A DNA stretch of 39,590 bases from a virus. This document shows positions 764-36,779 of this stretch, piece by piece. The stretch is from positions 1 to 39,590 of IMG/VR virus record IMGVR_UViG_3300045988_011202; one strand, given 5' to 3'. The notes under the pieces were generated by a model. It saw only the letters and a program-made list of their open reading frames with translations. It was not told the DNA's origin and searched no databases. A program made the translations under genes and the position numbers. How positions within the stretch are numbered: the first letter of the stretch is position 1; the number at the start of each line of letters is the position of its first letter.

Positions 764-954
764 TTGTCATCCTCCTTCTTCAACAGCTCGTCCACCGTGC
801 AGCCGTACAGCTCGGCGATCTCCGGCAAGCGGCTGGCCCTCGGTGCCTGCGTGCCGGTCTCCCACATGTAAACCGCCGCATCCGTCACCTTTAGTTTCTC
901 GATGACCTGCCGGACACTTAGCCCAGCGGCCAACCGAGCGCTGCGAAAACTCAT
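760..954 (-). CDS. XRE-family HTH regulator (Cro-like), first gene of the minus-strand early operon
   Basis: 64 aa. AGLSVRQVIEKLKVTDAAVYMWETG...IAELYGCTVDELL is a typical HTH_3 sequence. The gene is divergent from the CI-like gene. Confidence 0.85.
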   Translation of the reverse strand: MSFRSARLAAGLSVRQVIEKLKVTDAAVYMWETGTQAPRASRLPEIAELYGCTVDELLKKEDDK

Positions 955-1049
955 TCTGTCACCTCCAGTTTGATTCTTGCTTAGTTTTTAAGGTTGAATA
1001 CGGGTGTTACGGCATCAGGGCGGCTTTCCCTCTCCGCAATCAACAAAAA

Positions 1050-1088
1050 CTAAGTTTTACTTGACAACTTAGCAAACTGTGGTATTAT
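1050..1088 (+). promoter_or_regulatory. sigma70-type promoter of the repressor operon, with an operator-like inverted repeat
   Basis: TTGACA (1061-1066), 16-nt spacer, TGg-TATTAT (extended -10, 1080-1088). The inverted repeat CTAAGTT-N9-AACTTAG (1050-1072) brackets the -35. Confidence 0.6.
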
Positions 1089-1251
1089 GGAAGTGCCAAC
1101 AACCCTTAATATTTTCCGCAGTCCGCTAAGTGCAGGGGGCTTGGTTTTGTATTGCCTCCCGCCGATTCTTATTATAACTAATTAGAAGTTATAAGTCAAC
1201 CACTTTCTATTAGTTTTTATTAGTTTTGGTGAACTGCACAATATCCACGAG

Positions 1252-1620
1252 GTGCAAATGGACGCTATAGACAAAATAAACTTTTACTTGAGCAAAAAGG
1301 GCAAAAATGGAGCCGATTTAAGCCGCGCATTAGGGCTATCAAATAGCATTTATAGCCAATGGAATACGCGGAAAACTAAGCCGTCAAATGTTCGCCTTCC
1401 CGCTATTGCCGAATATCTCGGTGTCTCCGTAGAGGACATTATGCCGGACGATGTAGCCGCCCCCGCAGCTTCGGAGGGCGCAAAAAAAGCCCCCGATCCG
1501 GAGATCGAGGGCGTAATGGAAGATGAAGATTTGAAAGAAGCTGTCGAGCTTTTGAAAAAAATGGATAAGGAAACCCTGCGGATTTTTATCAAAGCCGCCC
1601 GCGGGGCTTTGGAGAATTAA
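1252..1620 (+). CDS. XRE-family HTH repressor (CI-like, no S24 peptidase domain)
   Basis: 122 aa. GADLSRALGLSNSIYSQWNTRKTKP...IAEYLGVSVEDIM is an HTH_3 sequence. The likelier start is ATG 1258, which lies after GAGG. Confidence 0.85.
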   Translation: MQMDAIDKINFYLSKKGKNGADLSRALGLSNSIYSQWNTRKTKPSNVRLPAIAEYLGVSVEDIMPDDVAAPAASEGAKKAPDPEIEGVMEDEDLKEAVELLKKMDKETLRIFIKAARGALEN

Positions 1621-1622
1621 TT

Positions 1623-2000
1623 ATGAGTATTTCGTGGGGTGAAATCGGCGTTTCCGCCTTTTCTGTTTTGGCATCCGCCGGAGTGTCTGTCTACATTTCT
1701 AAGCGGACAGCAAAAGCAGAAATCGAAAAGCTGAAAGCAATATGGGCGCACGAGAAAGAGGCCGCTTGCGATTCCGATTTTGATGCGATGGTTGCCGCCG
1801 TTTCCTTATATGCAAAGTATCCGTCTCCCGCAAACTTTCAGTCCGCTACCAACGCCGTCGGCATTTATCGCGCAAAAGCCACGGGAGAAGCGGCGGAAAA
1901 GGTTGACGAACTCAGCCGTTTAATCGTGAGGGAATGCCCAAATTGCGCAGCAGTATCCGACCAGCTGCAAGCCGTAATTGAGTGCAAGCGTAAAGCGTAG
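1623..2000 (+). CDS. N-terminally membrane-anchored protein co-transcribed with the repressor (possible superinfection exclusion)
   Basis: 125 aa with hydrophobic helix GEIGVSAFSVLASAGVSVYIS. The gene starts 2 nt after the repressor stop. Confidence 0.6.
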   Translation: MSISWGEIGVSAFSVLASAGVSVYISKRTAKAEIEKLKAIWAHEKEAACDSDFDAMVAAVSLYAKYPSPANFQSATNAVGIYRAKATGEAAEKVDELSRLIVRECPNCAAVSDQLQAVIECKRKA

Positions 2001-2002
2001 CT

Positions 2003-2179
2003 TTAAAAGGTCGCCTTGCCCTGCTCTCCCTCTTTCCAAAACATATCAAGTTCACCGGAAAAAAGATTCCTGGCAATTTTGTAAAGCTCACTGATGGCTG
2101 TTTCGCGGTCAACGCCGTCCAGCTCAAGGCCGATTTCGCGCTCGTAGCCGTTTTCTTTACTGATAGCCCAAATTTTCAT
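2003..2179 (-). CDS. hypothetical 58-aa protein
   Basis: Hand-translated as MKIWAISKENGYEREIGLELDGVDRETAISELYKIARNLFSGELDMFWKEGEQGKATF. Its start overlaps the stop of the upstream small ORF (ATGA). Confidence 0.4.
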   Translation of the reverse strand: MKIWAISKENGYEREIGLELDGVDRETAISELYKIARNLFSGELDMFWKEGEQGKATF

Positions 2180-2346
2180 TTTATCGCCTCCATAATTTTA
2201 TCAAACTGATTGCGGGTCATTTTACTCGCCAAAGAAATCGCCTCAGAAAGTAACGCAATATGCTCTGGATTCTTTATTATATCACATTTATTTCCCGTTT
2301 CACAGCTTAAAAATTCCATCTTTATACTTTTCTGCTTCCAATCCAC
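2176..2346 (-). CDS. hypothetical 56-aa protein
   Basis: GTG start 7 nt after AGGAGA. Translation is VDWKQKSIKMEFLSCETGNKCDIIKNPEHIALLSEAISLASKMTRNQFDKIMEAIK. Confidence 0.35.
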   Translation of the reverse strand: MDWKQKSIKMEFLSCETGNKCDIIKNPEHIALLSEAISLASKMTRNQFDKIMEAIK

Positions 2347-2467
2347 ATTATTTCTCCTTTCGGTTTATCTACCTATAGTCAAAATATGGCATTTGTTGCA
2401 CAGTTTAGGGCAACAAGGCGAAAAATTTTAGGGGAAGTGTTTGCTGTGATGATATTATGTGATTTAT

Positions 2468-2504
2468 CCCCACCGCCCCCGCACCGGACGGTGGGGATTT
2501 TTTG
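2468..2504 (+). terminator. rho-independent terminator (+ strand)
   Basis: CCCCACCG / CGGTGGGG stem (2468-2475 / 2489-2496) followed by ATTTTTTG. Confidence 0.6.
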
Positions 2505-2650
2505 CCGCCTATCGCCGTCACCGGCTCCTGGCCGCATACCCACGGTATCAGTTTGTTGTTTGGCAAGTCAATCCAAAAACCGGATAATATCCGATTAGCC
2601 GATAAAAACAAGCAGAGAGGTTTGCCCGAAATAAGGCAGGAGGGGAAGAA

Positions 2651-3307
2651 ATGGAAAAAACTTTACAGGATATTTGCAGAGAGGCAAAGGAGTACCAGCA
2701 TCTTACCACGCAAGACTTAGCCGATTTAACAGATCTGTCATCGTCCACGATCAGCAATTACTTTTCTGCATCGTCAAAGGATCCAAGCCTATACAAAATG
2801 GGGCTTATATGCGCCGCCCTCGGTGTGTCTATAGATGAGTATTTTGGTATCGTAAAGAGACCAACCACGGAGGAGCAGCTGGCAGAGGCACATAGAGCAA
2901 TGGCCGATGCAGATGCAAAGCATAGCGCAGCCCTACGCATTGCGCACTTGGAGGGCGGCATGGAGCAACTGACCGGATCAGTGGCAAAGCATGAAAAAAA
3001 GGAGCGCGTATTGCAAATTTGGGTGTATATCCTGGCGTTTTCGCTGTCGATTTCCGTATCCATAATATTTGGATATTTGGCGTTTGACTCAAGCGTCCCC
3101 CACACGGGGCTTATCCGCAACGGGCAGATTACATCACTCGGCTGGATGCTATTTGCGCTGCTTGCAGTAGGCGTCGGTGTAATCATTGCTGCGCTGATAA
3201 ATGCACTGCGATATTACAGGCACCATCAAACCGATAAAAATATAGGGCAGGAGGATAAAAATGGGAAAAGCAATGAGGAGGGCCAACGGAACCGGGACAG
3301 TGTATAA
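2651..3307 (+). CDS. membrane-tethered XRE-family HTH protein (HTH, coiled coil, 2 TM helices)
   Basis: 218 aa with RBS GGAGGGG. The HTH is LTTQDLADLTDLSSSTISNYF...AALGVSIDEYF. The TM helices are VLQIWVYILAFSLSISVSIIFGYLAF and LGWMLFALLAVGVGVIIAALINAL. Confidence 0.75.
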   Translation: MEKTLQDICREAKEYQHLTTQDLADLTDLSSSTISNYFSASSKDPSLYKMGLICAALGVSIDEYFGIVKRPTTEEQLAEAHRAMADADAKHSAALRIAHLEGGMEQLTGSVAKHEKKERVLQIWVYILAFSLSISVSIIFGYLAFDSSVPHTGLIRNGQITSLGWMLFALLAVGVGVIIAALINALRYYRHHQTDKNIGQEDKNGKSNEEGQRNRDSV

Positions 3308-4262
3308 GCTCGCCGGCCGCCGCCGCAGGCCTTGGGTGGCCGCAAAGCAAAAAATTATTATAGGATATTACCCCACCAAAAAAGATGCTATAGCGGCGCT
3401 GGAACGTCTTGCAGGCAAGGATTTAACGGAGCGGTACAACATGACCTTTGCCCAGGTGTTCGACGCTTGGAAAGAGGAGCATTACAAAAAAATAGGGCCA
3501 AACGGTATAGAGGGCTATGATGGCGCATTTAAAATTTTTGCGCCGCTGCATGAGCGGAAGTTCCGAGACTTAAAAACGGCGGATTTCCAGGGCGTGCTGG
3601 ATGCCCACATGCATAAATCCCACAGCACTGTGTCCAAGTATAAGCAACTCATAACGCAGATGTCCACATGGGCCATGCGTGAGGAGATCATCACAACAAA
3701 TTTTGCAAAATTCGCCCAGCTACCGGAAAACATAAAGAAAGAAAAAGAAACATTTACCGATGTAGAAATAAGCAAGCTGGAGGCGGACGGCAGCGACACC
3801 GCAAAAATTATCCTCATGCTGATTTACACAGGCATGCGCATAGGGGAATTGTTTTCCCTCCCGACTAAAGACTATCACAAAGATTATGTGATCGGCGGCG
3901 AAAAGACGAAAGCCGGGCGGAACAGGATCATCCCCATCCGCCCTGAAGGGCTCCCATACTTTGCCTATTTTGCAAATAAGGCCACCGGCCCGCTGCTCAT
4001 ATCCGGCTATGCTGGGGAAAAAATCCCAGCAAACTTCCGCCGCCGGGATTATTACCCGCTTTTGGAGAAATTAAAAATCCAGCGCAAAACGCCGCACTCC
4101 ACCCGGCACACCTATGCGAGCTGGGCGAGAAAAGCGGGGATTGCTCCAGAGATGCTGCAGAGGATCATCGGCCACGCCAACTACTCCACTACCGCAAATA
4201 TATACGTCCATACGTCAGCGGAGGAATTGGTGCAGGCCGTTAAAAAGGCGAAAATTTGTTAG
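3261..4262 (+). CDS. int: tyrosine site-specific integrase
   Basis: 333 aa with AGGAGG 7 nt upstream. Catalytic signature: GMRIGEL..., HSTRHTYASW, GHANYSTTANIYVH (R-H-R-H-Y). Confidence 0.95.
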   Translation: MGKAMRRANGTGTVYKLAGRRRRPWVAAKQKIIIGYYPTKKDAIAALERLAGKDLTERYNMTFAQVFDAWKEEHYKKIGPNGIEGYDGAFKIFAPLHERKFRDLKTADFQGVLDAHMHKSHSTVSKYKQLITQMSTWAMREEIITTNFAKFAQLPENIKKEKETFTDVEISKLEADGSDTAKIILMLIYTGMRIGELFSLPTKDYHKDYVIGGEKTKAGRNRIIPIRPEGLPYFAYFANKATGPLLISGYAGEKIPANFRRRDYYPLLEKLKIQRKTPHSTRHTYASWARKAGIAPEMLQRIIGHANYSTTANIYVHTSAEELVQAVKKAKIC

Positions 4263-28345: not shown

Positions 28346-28422
28346 TGGCAGGGACGGTTGGGAATCGAACCCACCCAAGCGGTTTTGGAGACCGCCTCGC
28401 CAGCCTTGGAACATTCGCCCCT
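28346..28422 (-). tRNA. tRNA-Trp(CCA)-like element, 77 nt, with a degenerate D-arm and an irregular T-arm
   Basis: Acceptor is AGGGGCG/CGTCCCT (one G-U) followed by G-CCA. The anticodon arm GCGGT-CUCCAAA-ACCGC is perfect. The T-loop is TTCGATT, but one extra nt lies between the T-stem and the acceptor. The D region AATGTTCCAAGGCTGGCGAG forms only about 3 bp. Confidence 0.55.
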
Positions 28423-28605: not shown

Positions 28606-28698
28606 TGGTGCAGACGGCTGGACTCGAACCAGCGACCAATGGCATTCAATCGCATATCCATTTGCGCGATAAAGCTCTACCGACTGAGCTACGCCTGC
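28606..28698 (-). tRNA. 93-nt tRNA-like element: canonical acceptor, D-arm and T-arm, but no canonical anticodon arm
   Basis: GCAGGCG-TA-GCTC-AGTCGGTA-GAGC ... GCTGG-TTCGAGT-CCAGC-CGTCTGC-A-CCA. Between the D and T arms there are 40 nt instead of about 23. Two mutually exclusive helices form there: ATCGC/GCGAT and AATGG/CCATT. Confidence 0.5.
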
Positions 28699-34072: not shown

Positions 34073-34378
34073 TTACACCGCCAATCCGTCCAGCAGCTCC
34101 TCCACGGTCATCTGACCCGGCACCTGCATGGCCTTTGCAAGCCTGCTGTATGTGGCCAGCTCGTCCAGAGCCCGCTTGCGGTACATGTCCAGCAGCGCCT
34201 TCTTGTCCTCGTCGGTCTCGGCAAGGCGGTATCCGCCGTCCTTCAGCGCCACAATGGGCACCCCCTGCCTCCGCTGCGCCCGGATCATTCGCCGGTTCTC
34301 TCTGTCCGGCATCCCGGTCAATGCTTCAAGGTTTTTCCGGGTGTATGTAATGCCGGGAATCATGCGTAATGTGGTCAT
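34073..34378 (-). CDS. hypothetical protein (101 aa)
   Basis: The start MTTLRMIPGITY lies 6 nt after GGGGAGG, which is located in the end of the methyltransferase ORF. Confidence 0.65.
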   Translation of the reverse strand: MTTLRMIPGITYTRKNLEALTGMPDRENRRMIRAQRRQGVPIVALKDGGYRLAETDEDKKALLDMYRKRALDELATYSRLAKAMQVPGQMTVEELLDGLAV

Positions 34379-34379
34379 G

Positions 34380-35765
34380 TCAATCCTCCCCAAATCTCAG
34401 TTTCGTCACGGCAATGGGGAACTCTTCAATCTCGCTTGCCCAGCGTGCCGTGCCCTTGCCGTTGTGCCGCTCAAACACCAGCGGAAAGCCGCCGATACCG
34501 TCAAACAGGCTACCCATCGTAACAGGGCGAAGATATTGCGCACTGATACGCTTTGCCAGGAAATCCCAGAAGGGAAGGGCGATGGAGTTACCCAGTGCCT
34601 TGTAGCGAGGGCTGTCGCTTGGTTTGCGCAGCTTGCCCTTACTGTCGCGCCACTCGCCAATGTCTGTCCATCCGTCCGGGAAACCTTGCAGCCGTTCGCA
34701 CTCCATCGGGGTAAGGCGTCGCACAATCATGCCCGTTCTCACGGTGTTCTGCAAATTGTAGCTGATTCCGCCGTTTGATTTTGCCTGCAAAGTCCCGTTT
34801 GTTTCGCCGCCCTCTCGGAAGTTCCGGCAGTCAACAGCACAAACAAGGTCTGTGCTGTCCTTAAAGTCCCGCTGCTTGCAACTGCTTGCAACCTCTCCGG
34901 CGCGGTAATCTCCAAACCCTTGCATTTGATATGTCAGCGGCACTTGGTTTCCGCCTGTTCCCATACGGGCTTGCAAACTCGGAACAATCTCGCCGCAGTC
35001 TCGGATGACATCGCAAGCGTGCGACATATCCAGTGCAACCACCGCCGGGGTTTGGTTCGTCCCGCTGGGTGCCGCCGCCAGCGTGGGCGATACTTCCTCA
35101 CTGTACCCGATGCCGCCCGCCTGTGCGCCCTGTCCGGCCTTAAACCCGGCACATAGCACAGCTTCGCGGTTCAGACCGCTGTTTTCACGGGAACTGAGCG
35201 TAGGCGAAACGCCGTTACCGTCGTATACGCGCTGGCTCTGTGCGTCCCAAGGTGTCATGCACATTACCCCGTGGCGGTCGCCGGCAGTCAGCGTAGGAGA
35301 CGGGTCTCCCTCTTTTCCGATGCCAAGACCGTTTCCGCTGCCATCGTGGTTGCGGCTCTCTCCGCCGCCCTGCCATCTTGTAGCTTTGTCGTTGATGGGG
35401 ATTGCTGCAAATATGGCAGGATTGTTCACACCTCCTCCAACACCGCCTTGTAGTGTGGGAGATTTTCCGTTTGTGTCAAAAATGCGCTTGCTTTGGCAAT
35501 CCCAAGCCGTCATGCAGTCCCCGACTGCCGGATTAAAACCTCTTTCAGCAGCTTCGGCAAATCCTTCCCGCGCCGTTCCGCTCTCCGTAGGATGCCTTGA
35601 CACGCTTTTGCGCTCAAAGAGTATTTCTCCTGCGGTGTCTCCTCCAAAATCTGCGACAACCGAGATACGACGGCGGCGTTGTGGGACTCCCCAGTATTGC
35701 GCGTCATGCACTCGCCAAGCCACGCTCCATCGTCCTCCCACCTCATCGTGGTAGCCCCCCCCCAA
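34380..35765 (-). CDS. cytosine-5 DNA methyltransferase, downstream reading frame: motif VIII, multiple TRD modules, motifs IX and X, then motifs I and II at the C-terminus
   Basis: QYWGVPQRRRRISVVA (VIII). Repeated xSPTL modules. RRLTPMECERLQGFPDGWT (IX). GNSIALP (X). Then GSLFDGIGGF (I) and WASEIEEFPIAVTKLRF (II). The ORF-track start is only a TTG inside the G9 tract. Confidence 0.85.
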   Translation of the reverse strand: MGGGYHDEVGGRWSVAWRVHDAQYWGVPQRRRRISVVADFGGDTAGEILFERKSVSRHPTESGTAREGFAEAAERGFNPAVGDCMTAWDCQSKRIFDTNGKSPTLQGGVGGGVNNPAIFAAIPINDKATRWQGGGESRNHDGSGNGLGIGKEGDPSPTLTAGDRHGVMCMTPWDAQSQRVYDGNGVSPTLSSRENSGLNREAVLCAGFKAGQGAQAGGIGYSEEVSPTLAAAPSGTNQTPAVVALDMSHACDVIRDCGEIVPSLQARMGTGGNQVPLTYQMQGFGDYRAGEVASSCKQRDFKDSTDLVCAVDCRNFREGGETNGTLQAKSNGGISYNLQNTVRTGMIVRRLTPMECERLQGFPDGWTDIGEWRDSKGKLRKPSDSPRYKALGNSIALPFWDFLAKRISAQYLRPVTMGSLFDGIGGFPLVFERHNGKGTARWASEIEEFPIAVTKLRFGED

Positions 35766-36130
35766 GTTGGCCAGCCTTTTTCAGGCACATCAATATCGGG
35801 GGCTTCCGGCTCTGCGATGCGGATGATCTCTTCGAGGACTGCCGCGAAGTCTTTTCCTTTGTTGCTGCTGAAAGCTCCGGGCACATTTTCCCAGACCATA
35901 AACCGAGGTCTGACCATGTCACCTGTCCTTCCGTTTGCTCTGTCATGCTCTCTCATCTCCTTTACGATGCGGATTTGCGCCATGAACAATCCGCTCCTTG
36001 CGCCGGCCAATCCGGCGCGTTTTCCCGCAATGCTCAAATCTTGGCACGGCGATCCGCCCGTGATAACATCCACGATTTCAATTTCTGCACCGTTGATTTT
36101 GCAAATATCTCCTAAATGCTTCACTTCCAT
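35510..36130 (-). CDS. cytosine-5 DNA methyltransferase, upstream reading frame: motifs III-IV-VI; goes out of frame at the G9 tract
   Basis: Start MEVKHLGDICKINGAEIEIVDVITGGSPCQDLSIAGKR (PCQ, motif IV), then MVWENVPG (ENV, motif VI). After WPTWGG the sequence stops looking like a methyltransferase. Confidence 0.85.
   Translation of the reverse strand: MEVKHLGDICKINGAEIEIVDVITGGSPCQDLSIAGKRAGLAGARSGLFMAQIRIVKEMREHDRANGRTGDMVRPRFMVWENVPGAFSSNKGKDFAAVLEEIIRIAEPEAPDIDVPEKGWPTWGGATTMRWEDDGAWLGECMTRNTGESHNAAVVSRLSQILEETPQEKYSLSAKACQGILRRAERRGKDLPKLLKEVLIRQSGTA
35755..35763. repeat. C9/G9 homopolymer at the frame junction of the C5-methyltransferase
   Basis: Read directly as gtagcccccccccaag. One extra G would fuse ...EKGWPTWGG to GYHDEVGGRWSVAWRVHDAQYWGVPQRRRR in frame. 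Confidence 0.9.
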
Positions 36131-36137
36131 CGCCCTC

Positions 36138-36779
36138 CTACCATCGCATAAACTCCGCCAGGCTATTGTCCGGTGTCTTTTCCTTGGGATCGGCAGTCTT
36201 TGCCCATCTTTCCCACTTTTCGGCATTTCGACAAGCCGCTTTCCAGTTTTTCATGGGGGTCTTGCCGACCATCCAGCCCTTAGACTCGTAGAAATCAATA
36301 AATTCCTGCGGGTCCACCGGGGAATGGCGTTCAGCCACATAGGACTGCACCTCTGCCAGGGTGGGCGGGGTAAAGCGCTTCGCGCGTATATCACCCTTGC
36401 TATCGTTAGATAGCTGGGTATTGGTATTGGTTTTGGTTTCGGTATTGGTTTCGGTATTGCCATTTTTGCCATTAGCAACTATGGCTTTGCCATTTTTGCC
36501 ATTAGCAAAAATGCGTTTGCCATTTTGCCATCTTGCGGCGGCTCCGGCCTTGCCCGCCTCGCGCCGGGTGGTAGAAATGTCGTCATAGCTCGCCTTAAAC
36601 CGATCCTCCTGCGCCATTACGCGCTTGGCATAAAATCTCTCATTGCCACAGAGCGCCAACTGCTCTCCCGTCATGCTGTATACCAGCAATGCCCGCGTTA
36701 GCCGCCCGAACTCTGCATCGTTGAGTGCTTCCATCTCCTCTAAATAGTCATAGGGGAGTGCAGCATAGTTTCTTGCCAT
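36138..36779 (-). CDS. replisome-organiser-like protein with the conserved phage C-terminus (Phg_2220_C-type)
   Basis: 213 aa. The C-terminus is FTPPTLAEVQSYVAERHSPVDPQEFIDFYESKGWMVGKTPMKNWKAACRNAEKW. The linker is low-complexity NGK/TETN repeats. Confidence 0.75.
   Translation of the reverse strand: MARNYAALPYDYLEEMEALNDAEFGRLTRALLVYSMTGEQLALCGNERFYAKRVMAQEDRFKASYDDISTTRREAGKAGAAARWQNGKRIFANGKNGKAIVANGKNGNTETNTETKTNTNTQLSNDSKGDIRAKRFTPPTLAEVQSYVAERHSPVDPQEFIDFYESKGWMVGKTPMKNWKAACRNAEKWERWAKTADPKEKTPDNSLAEFMRW
36425..36530 (-). repeat. coding tandem repeats: a 12-nt unit (ggtattggtttc) and a 30-nt unit (gccatttttgccattagcaa...) x2.4
   Basis: Read directly. They encode ANGKNGKAIVANGKNGNTETNTETKTNTNT. 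Confidence 0.8.

Follow-up and report, generated by a model that had tools for sequence, protein, structure and literature searches.

The cytosine-5 DNA methyltransferase (hereafter C5-MTase) gene at 34380..36130 on the minus strand of IMG/VR virus record IMGVR_UViG_3300045988_011202 raises the question of whether nature has made a circularly permuted enzyme of this class with its chain broken between motifs II and III. The whole stretch analyzed, positions 1 to 39,590 of that record, is called the window below. A sequence-only reading had proposed the motif order III-IV-VI-VIII-TRDs-IX-X-I-II (TRD, target-recognition domain) for this gene. Textbooks give circular permutation as a way in which new protein topologies arise, and C5-MTases are its experimental model. 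Ten classes of permutants were constructed from M.MpeI and M.SssI by Slaska-Kiss et al. (2018; PMC5944983), and class B, with the N terminus between motifs II and III, was the most active. To the authors' surprise, this Type B order was said not to occur naturally: the natural permuted C5-MTases in REBASE (M.BssHII, M.Alw26I, M2.Eco31I, M.Esp3I, M2.BsaI, and 22 more) are all permuted in the variable region (27 of 27; PMC5944983). The sequence-only reading was thus right in citing M.BssHII as a precedent for natural permutation and in calling a II|III break undescribed. No later report of a natural Type B enzyme was found in the literature searched, which had most subscription journals and REBASE outside its coverage. 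Here, we conclude that the window gene is very probably a natural circular permutant of Type B among the C5-MTases, a phage orphan, of which the window copy is out of frame.

The window protein passed the thresholds of two C5-MTase profiles, PF00145 (118.1 bits, cut-off 22, E 7e-34, in four stretches) and TIGR00675 (111.2 bits, cut-off 100.65). In a piecewise scan with PF00145, residues 5-102 corresponded to profile positions 46-130, residues ~130-159 (the motif VIII piece) to 133-160, residues ~466-526 (the IX-X piece) to 275-323, and residues ~537-574, within the last 49 residues, to 2-37. The order along the chain is III-IV-VI-VIII, variable region, IX-X, and I-II, and not the canonical linear order from I to X. 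Because the fold is not defined by the order of its motifs, the protein remains a member of the superfamily. The phmmer alignment with M.HhaI pairs query residues 539-582 with HhaI 14-55 (motifs I-II), 4-60 with 56-112 (motifs III-V), 140-159 with 150-169 (motif VIII), and 462-531 with 264-320 (motifs IX-X). Both comparisons bear out the proposed motif order. When the last 44 residues were moved to the front, the protein matched M.HhaI in one stretch (HhaI 16-112, E 1.5e-10), and the un-permuted protein likewise gave one PF00145 stretch (profile 5-130). The join of the C and N termini aligns to HhaI 55|56. The N terminus between motifs II and III, the linkage of motif X to motif I, and the unit length are the features of Type B. 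A six-frame hidden Markov model scan of the whole 39.6-kb window found one copy each of the I-II, III-VIII, and IX-X segments and no second motif I-II copy, so the case that the sequence-only reading had set against a permutation, motifs I-II lying also upstream of motif IV, does not apply.

The catalytic and cofactor motifs (FDGIGG, SEIE, GSPCQ, ENV, QRRRR, RLQGFPDGW, and GNSIALP) are all present and invariant in 45-109 family members. In the window, they are divided between two overlapping open reading frames (ORFs) of the ORF list. The first, 35510..36226(-), carries MEVKHLGDICKING, GGSPCQDLS, and MVWENVPGAF, and the second, 34380..35765(-), carries WGVPQRRRR, a long Gly/Ser/Thr-rich region, RLQGFPDGW, GNSIALP, MGSLFDGIGGF, and WASEIEEFPIAVTKLRFGED followed by the TGA stop codon (34380-34382). 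All features of the gene lie on the minus strand. The alignment with M.HhaI and the canonical relatives place motif III (HLGDI, 36104..36118) at the present N terminus, followed by motif IV (GGSPCQDLS, 36032..36058), which contains the catalytic Cys, aligns with M.HhaI, and is invariant in three family alignments. Motif VI (MVWENVPGAF, 35870..35899) was located by the PF00145 match, whereas the M.HhaI alignment and the profile scan together placed motifs VII-VIII (WRVHDAQYWGVPQRRRR, 35667..35717), IX (RRLTPMECERLQGFPDGW, 34668..34721), and X (RYKALGNSIALP, 34572..34607). The motif X helix and a short linker (34518-34571) lead to the relocated motif I (MGSLFDGIGGF, 34485..34517), the AdoMet (S-adenosylmethionine)-binding loop, and then to the relocated motif II (RWASEIEEFPIAVT, 34404..34445), both by the M.HhaI alignment; the gene ends with KLRFGED and the stop codon. 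The linker of about 20 residues described in the sequence-only reading consists mostly of the motif X helix, and the true linker from motif X to strand 1 of motif I has ~6-8 residues (YLRPVT). The start codon was also placed differently. ATG 36130 had been taken as the start, but it is likely GTG 36124, which lies 9 nt after AGGAGG and directly behind the stop codon of the upstream gene. The variable region (306 residues, 34722..35639) contains six T-L-type modules (four xSPTL, one VPSLQ, and one NGTLQ), and these are presumed to be tandem target-recognition domains. It is the only part whose length varies across the permuted family, from 128 to 533 residues, by gain or loss of whole blocks.

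The arrangement is shared by a large family. A search of 5.8 billion proteins with the window MTase gave >8000 matches; the best 120 homologs all cover the query, have the order IV<VI<VIII<IX<X<I (120/120), start with M-K-H-L-G-D-I, and end with AVTK.RFGE(D/E). A second search, with a 55%-identical member as the query, returned the same layout, and 224 intact permuted proteins were retrieved. Among 1.84 billion representatives at 50% identity, the IX-X-linker-I-II junction used as a query matched 750 clusters (E<=1e-30). The best 150 of these matches all span essentially the whole junction, 146 of them in a single stretch, and mostly end at or near the C terminus. In a scan of 185,579 genomes, one per bacterial species, 158 loci encode relatives. 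The 80 loci kept comprise 44 with the permuted order, 29 with the canonical order, and 7 that are incomplete; no other motif order was observed. The hosts are Oscillospiraceae, Ruminococcaceae, Acutalibacteraceae, and other Clostridia. The window gene itself, with one single-nucleotide polymorphism, is present in intact form with the same neighbors in four independent assemblies from four different samples, and the permuted gene was also found in 10 IMG/VR contigs. Cultured or isolate carriers are the Faecalibacterium phages FP_Toutatis and Lelie and Acutalibacter sp. 1XD8-36, whose protein is named plainly "DNA cytosine methyltransferase" at NCBI. Members of the permuted family are widely distributed among the phages and prophages of gut Clostridia, including Faecalibacterium, and are common in the human gut virome.

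Comparison with the canonical relatives defines the break precisely. The N termini of the 29 canonical relatives read (L/I)-T-M-G-S-L-F-D-G-I-G-G-F-P-L..W-A-S-E-I-E-x-F-P-x-x-V-T-K-x-R-F-P-(D/E)-M-x-H-V-G-D-I-T-K-L..G-G-S-P-C-Q-D-L-S, and the nearest of them read TMGSLFDGIGGFPL..WASEIE.FP..VTK.RFP.M.HVGDITKL...GGSPCQDLS across the break. The break falls exactly at RFP(D/E)|M-x-H-(L/V)-GDI, the permuted proteins ending with V-T-K-L-R-F-G-E-D and starting with M-(K)-H-L-G-D-I. The seamless junction noted from the sequence is real: the start codon of the permuted gene is an internal Met codon of the canonical gene, with ~3 extra residues at the join compared with the canonical sisters. The permuted linker keeps x-T-M-G-S-L-F, nearly the whole ancestral N terminus, which is also recognizable in relocated motif I of the window. 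The position between motifs II and III is borne out by the profile, the M.HhaI alignment, the canonical sisters, and conservation in hundreds of sequences. In a neighbor-joining tree of the re-ordered core (279 columns), 37 permuted sequences are split from 18 canonical ones with 100/100 bootstrap support, and core identity within the permuted clade goes down to 60%. Because of this split and this divergence, the sequences indicate that the permuted layout arose in one old event inside a clade of canonical prophage enzymes. The event may have been a tandem duplication with in-frame fusion, followed by loss of the outer I-II and III-X parts; of the duplication and trimming proposed in the sequence-only reading, its standing as the simplest path holds, and the missing intermediate is considered below. 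In one metagenome-assembled genome contig (L035, CAJMPY010000035), the permuted ORF runs past motif II as RFGSENMIHYTLNI and continues into a CPxC...CPxC zinc-ribbon-like tail. The NMIHY after motif II in this ORF resembles the motif III start M-I-H-L-G-D-I and might be a vestige of a duplicated copy, though a doubtful one.

The relocated block is the most constrained part of the protein. Nei-Gojobori ratios of nonsynonymous to synonymous substitution (dN/dS) for the permuted loci are lowest for the I-II block (0.12), followed by III-VIII (0.18) and IX-X (0.21). Residues S540, L541, F542, D543, G544, G547, F548, W563, S565, E566, and E568 are invariant down to 50% identity. These substitution patterns indicate strong purifying selection on the relocated I-II block. 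For the 395-residue family member P0471 (109-sequence alignment), the AlphaFold2 model has a predicted template modeling score of 0.70, and its two conserved parts are confident, with block-mean predicted local distance difference test (pLDDT) values mostly of 72-95; the core together with the C-terminal strands and helices scores 77-93. At its C terminus, the model has a strand (348-351), a helix (358-366), a second strand (371-373), and a second helix (379-388). The best Protein Data Bank (PDB) match in a Foldseek search was M.HhaI (E 8.8e-8, root mean square deviation of 2.0 Å over 152 columns), and M.HaeIII, M.MpeI, and DNMT1 were among the further top matches. Here, we propose how the permuted chain would fold. 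It would begin at strand 3 (motif III/IV) and proceed through catalytic motifs IV-VIII, the modular variable region, and IX-X. The linker of 6-8 residues would then lead into strand 1, helix A, and strand 2 (motifs I-II), completing the AdoMet-binding Rossmann half from the C terminus. From the confidence scores of the model, we infer that the C-terminal strand packs into the sheet, with strand 1 beside strand 4. The permuted enzyme is presumably active, would methylate several targets via its recognition modules, and would protect the phage DNA; the engineered Type B permutants of M.MpeI and M.SssI are a precedent for activity of this topology (PMC5944983).

The window copy is interrupted at a homopolymer between motifs VI and VII that encodes W-G-G (35755..35763, minus strand), which is C9 on the plus strand and G9 on the coding strand and forms the junction of the two ORFs. 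In intact relatives, the tract is G7 (TGG GGG GGC), and the in-frame lengths are G7, G10, G13, and so on. The window tract, with two more nucleotides than G7, is out of frame. A single frame is regained by adding one G, giving 583 residues, or by removing two, giving 582 residues (580 from the GTG start). The sequence-only reading had assumed a G10 repair yielding 584 residues; G10 does regain the frame, but the tract is G9 and the product is 583 residues long. Hypervariability of the tract had not been noticed in that reading, nor had the size of the family, whose members already stand unrecognized in the databases, or the nested ORF described below. Nine of the ten IMG/VR contigs carry G7 and one carries G8; G7 was counted in 13 relatives and G8 in two loci (L007 and L024). 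In the species genomes, wherever the frame changes between motifs VI and VIII, the change falls at a G-run of 8-10 (L007, L024, L076, and L085), and in-frame G-runs of 8-11 also occur. FP_Toutatis has G9 (L097, position 1892) and Lelie has G14 (L098, position 1791), although the two genes are 99.65% identical, and both are out of frame. The length of this intragenic tract varies among near-identical genes (G7, G8, and G9) and genomes and sets the frame, as in phase variation, and the tract appears to behave as a contingency locus. The simplest reading of the window copy is that of an "off" variant. Because G9 is out of frame and G7 is in frame, this copy is unable to yield the full-length enzyme without slippage.

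The window G9 could instead be a sequencing or assembly error in a phage that has G7 and an intact gene, and among the rival explanations, this one survives best. Homopolymers are error-prone, and the four assemblies of the otherwise identical gene all carry G7. An error of two nucleotides, however, is unusual for a short-read consensus, and the same kind of tract differs between the cultured isolates (G9 versus G14). Length differences also recur in the four unrelated assemblies named above, and FP_Toutatis shares the G9-type frame relation of the window. We therefore regard an error as unlikely and retain the reading of the window copy as an "off" variant.

A second reading frame is conserved inside the MTase gene. 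ORF X, ~140 codons long (range, about 130-165), lies in the +1 frame and overlaps motifs VI-VIII and the following linker (35510-35962 in the window, minus strand). Past motif VIII, the +1 frame of every related locus, canonical or permuted, reads LSQILE..PHPKYYLSAKAC.GILRRAERRGK.LP..L..AL, and these motifs stand at a constant offset from motif VIII in 83 of the 83 loci checked. They belong to the C-terminal 45 residues of ORF X (LSQILE..P.KYYLSAKAC.GILRRAERRGK.LP..L..AL), which in the window correspond to the peptide LSQILEETPQEKYSLSAKACQGILRRAERRGKDLPKLLKEVLIRQ (35525..35659, minus strand, +1 relative to motif VIII). Nucleotide diversity at MTase codon positions 1/2/3 has the normal pattern over 33 nt at motif VIII (0.23/0.10/0.43). 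It is 0.08/0.03/0.12 at +33..+54 and shifts to 0.62/0.33/0.18 at +108..+138, as expected for selection in the +1 frame; the shift is also seen in 50 loci with a continuous MTase frame. An antisense gene was rejected as the cause of the shift, as all three antisense frames contain stops. These diversity patterns argue that the C-terminal 45 residues of ORF X are under purifying selection in the +1 frame, where the MTase frame drifts freely. From -240 to +180, the +1 frame has 0-0.7 stops per 100 codons, compared with 2-9.5 elsewhere and with 2.4-6.7 in the third frame over the same interval. The first ATG of the +1 frame clusters at -254..-227, ~10 nt after AAGGAG, which encodes the K-E of the conserved VKEMR. 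In the window, this presumed ribosome-binding site and start of ORF X (AAGGAG-N10-ATG, 35944..35962, minus strand) lies inside the MTase codons for K-E-M-R-E-H. Before the ORF X ATG, diversity at four-fold sites of the MTase frame is 0.71; within the overlap it falls to 0.51, and at LVADFGG it is down to 0.23.

The +1 peptide is not restricted to the permuted family. It was found by tblastn in 137 phage records, and ORF X is also present in L001, L042-L094, L095 (P1 dmt), and L099-L103. In six of six further phages (P1, Vibrio CP-T1, mycobacteriophage KashFlow, Streptococcus Javan261, Caulobacter DMCA, and Pseudomonas TC7), the peptide lies in the +1 frame of the annotated coding sequence, within an open stretch of 82-221 codons, and GGAG precedes the first ATG by 8-11 nt in four of the six. 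The protein databases contain it only as "hypothetical" fragments of 48-88 residues, and it had no match in Pfam, NCBIfam, or PDB. PHROG gave one weak match, to a family whose members may be MTase ORFs cut short by frameshifts. The peptide may resemble the "KYYLS" start of the variable region of ordinary C5-MTases, but with it added to the MTase, the PF00145 score rose by only 1-2 bits. No report of an ORF nested in a C5-MTase gene was found in the literature searched, with the same limits of coverage as above. The G9 of the window fuses MTase motifs III-VI to the last 80 residues of ORF X (35510..36226), as in gp14 of FP_Toutatis, and truncates ORF X itself to 67 residues (35743..35946). The three length classes of the tract give three frame relations between the front half of the MTase, its back half, and the nested ORF. 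On the balance of these sequence patterns, ORF X is probably a nested protein-coding gene across a wide clade of phage C5-MTases, including P1 dmt, and together with the poly-G tract it would form a compact three-state expression switch. The alternatives are a programmed +1 frameshift and a split-enzyme arrangement.

Frame changes of other kinds occur in the related loci. In 14 of 81 loci, the main frame stops ~35 codons past motif VIII, and TRD-IX-X is encoded in the +1 frame without a break from the KYYLS peptide. A second poly-G tract at the start of a recognition module ("IRGGC") changes from G7 to G8 in L033, L037, and L041 and accounts for some of the shifted loci. In a canonical group (L079, L084, L086, and L089-L094), the frame is shifted without a homopolymer, and these genes may be naturally split, like M.AquI, or frameshift-dependent. 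In L016, L075, and L077, an insertion between the catalytic Cys and Gln codons of motif IV (net +1 nt; bases TAGA, TAGC, or CAGC) shifts the frame and introduces a stop in two of the three. Many database proteins starting with MWSLVVHLVSQDLS or MVVHLVSQDLS (for example, P0398, P0425, and P0491) reflect the same insertion.

The working enzyme could consist of two or more polypeptides, one with III-VIII and one with TRD-IX-X-I-II, assembled in the manner of M.AquI or joined through the +1 peptide by frameshifting, in which case the continuous ORF would be incidental. The 14 loci in which the +1 peptide (KYYLS...RRGK.LP) is continuous with TRD-IX-X are as this arrangement predicts. In the lineage of the window, moreover, the stop of the +1 frame and an in-frame ATG share bases (ATGA). 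Even in loci with a single ORF, purifying selection acts on the +1 peptide in its own right, and C5-MTases split between VIII and the TRD complement each other (PMC5944983). On the other hand, the frame of motif VIII continues unbroken across the variable region in 56 of the 81 loci, and about half of the permuted species-genome loci are in one frame from III to II. Several shifted loci are due to the second poly-G tract (IRGGC, G7 to G8), and no conserved slippery site or internal start common to Clostridia and P1 was found where motif VIII meets the +1 peptide. A split enzyme is improbable on this evidence. Since the order X-linker-I-II is conserved in whatever way the front half is made, the permutation holds in both cases.

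It is far less plausible that the C-terminal I-II block is the dead remnant of a second, truncated MTase fused by accident, a decaying pseudogene with no working AdoMet site. The frameshift in the window copy and the many relatives split over two frames would fit decay. The low dN/dS of the block and its residues invariant down to 50% identity do not, and the block is kept in 224 of 224 intact proteins and ~750 clusters, in a permuted clade that is old and diverse (core identity down to 60%), and the window has no other I-II copy. That the arrangement is an assembly or chimera artifact of the window contig has next to no likelihood and is refuted by independent occurrences of the permuted gene: homopolymer errors are common in assemblies, but the same gene and neighborhood are found in independent assemblies from four different samples, and the gene is present in the 10 IMG/VR contigs, in the records of FP_Toutatis, Lelie, and Acutalibacter sp. 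1XD8-36, and in 44 species genomes.

Several points weigh against an active single-chain Type B enzyme. The AlphaFold2 model of the 582-residue window protein, from a shallow alignment of 60 close homologs, has a pLDDT of only 34, and the variable region of P0471 is unmodeled. Foldseek, which aligns sequentially, matched 152-166 columns, presumably those of the collinear N-terminal III-VIII part. No duplication intermediate with motifs I-II at both ends was found. In the species genomes, about half of the permuted loci have the gene divided between two frames; many copies may thus lack activity, or the locus may be expressed in a more complex way than as one chain. That the plain 582-residue reading is incomplete is shown by the conserved ORF in the +1 frame. 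Slaska-Kiss et al. also speculated that the Type B order may weaken AdoMet binding (PMC5944983). With these points taken into account, the permutation stands as a real product of nature, old, widespread, and maintained by selection; its topology is otherwise recorded only from laboratory constructs.

The surroundings of the gene are those of a phage replication and recombination module, in the order Erf-NinB-SSB-replisome organizer-MTase-RusA, and the MTase is a phage-encoded orphan with no restriction partner. The last codons of the MTase (TTT GGG GAG GAT TGA) form the ribosome-binding site GGGGAGGA of the downstream gene (34376-34400, minus strand), whose ATG lies 1 nt past the MTase stop. 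This role may partly explain the uniform RFGE(D/E) ends of the permuted proteins. Nothing above the Rfam threshold was found in the MTase region. Elsewhere in the window, ARAGORN predicted a tRNA-Trp(CCA) gene at 28346-28422 (-) and a tRNA-Ala(CGC)-like gene at 28606-28698 (-), the latter unusually long at 93 nt. In the dmt gene of Escherichia phage P1 (L095; isolate OP279344, coding sequence 838..3879), the C5 domain precedes a Dam-like domain, and motif IV contains an insertion of ~360 residues (GGTPC|FTAGHM...VVHN|CQAFS) that looks like an intein with a homing-endonuclease domain. In Mycobacterium phage Schatzie (L096, 66364-67887), the DNA methylase is annotated as "coding region not determined," with undetermined intron boundaries and an HNH endonuclease gene inside. 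This clade of MTase genes seems prone to invasion by mobile elements.

The II|III break, the most active in the laboratory and described as unused by nature, is here natural in an abundant family of human-gut phages. The family is a dated, single-origin event with the canonical sister group still extant, a natural test of the cost of the Type B order in AdoMet affinity, and a source of sequences with a ready-made split point for the engineering of targeted methyltransferases. Annotation pipelines name such genes "DNA cytosine methyltransferase" or fragment them, so that both the permutation and the poly-G switching are hidden in the databases. If ORF X is a true gene, a well-studied enzyme class gains a new and unknown protein, one carried even by phage P1.

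Among known systems, the frame-setting tract is similar to those of the phasevarion MTases, the mod and Type II MTase genes of Haemophilus, Neisseria, Helicobacter, and Campylobacter, in which an in-gene repeat or poly-G tract sets the frame. Those genes are chromosomal and belong to host-adapted pathogens, whereas the tract described here lies in a phage gene of gut Clostridia and is a putative switch. M.SPRI, M.Phi3TI, M.Rho11sI, and M.phiBssHII are multispecific phage orphan C5-MTases with tandem target-recognizing modules and canonical motif order. The window MTase shares with these Bacillus phage enzymes the orphan phage status and presumably the tandem recognition modules, and no close sequence relationship was seen. 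Plant DRM2 is another natural C5-MTase with a rearranged motif order, and DRM2 chains were matched by motif IV near their C terminus. DRM2 is broken between motifs V and VI (order VI-X, I-V) and belongs to a eukaryotic, unrelated lineage; in the window MTase, motifs III to VIII are contiguous at the N terminus.

Other natural permutants are the enzymes of the M.BssHII type ("Type H"), bona fide C5-MTases whose ten motifs likewise form one permuted chain in which motif I comes after motif X. Their termini lie in the variable region (IX-X-I...VIII), which leaves both structural domains intact. In contrast, the window MTase has its N terminus at motif III and an internal variable region, and the break between II and III falls inside the AdoMet-binding half of the large domain. 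The engineered cp62M.MpeI and cp58M.SssI have the same topology as the window enzyme, with the N terminus between II and III and motif X linked to motif I. M.HaeIII permutants of Type B topology were obtained by directed evolution through tandem duplication and truncation (work cited in PMC5944983 as its reference 14), and this route is the one proposed for the origin of the window family. The engineered permutants are laboratory-made and monospecific, with designed linkers, whereas the window family is natural, ancient, and diversified and has a long modular variable region. The nearest canonical relatives by sequence are the C5-MTases of Clostridia prophages (for example, in Sellimonas catena, Blautia schinkii, and Bengtsoniella intestinalis; L042-L047 and L079-L094), with core identity up to 65%. 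These enzymes and the wider phage clade that includes P1 Dmt share with the permuted family the ADFGG..ILF linker, the modular variable region, the hidden +1 ORF, and the genomic niche. Unlike the permuted enzymes, the canonical prophage C5-MTases carry motifs I-II at the N terminus, and they form the sister group with 100/100 bootstrap support.

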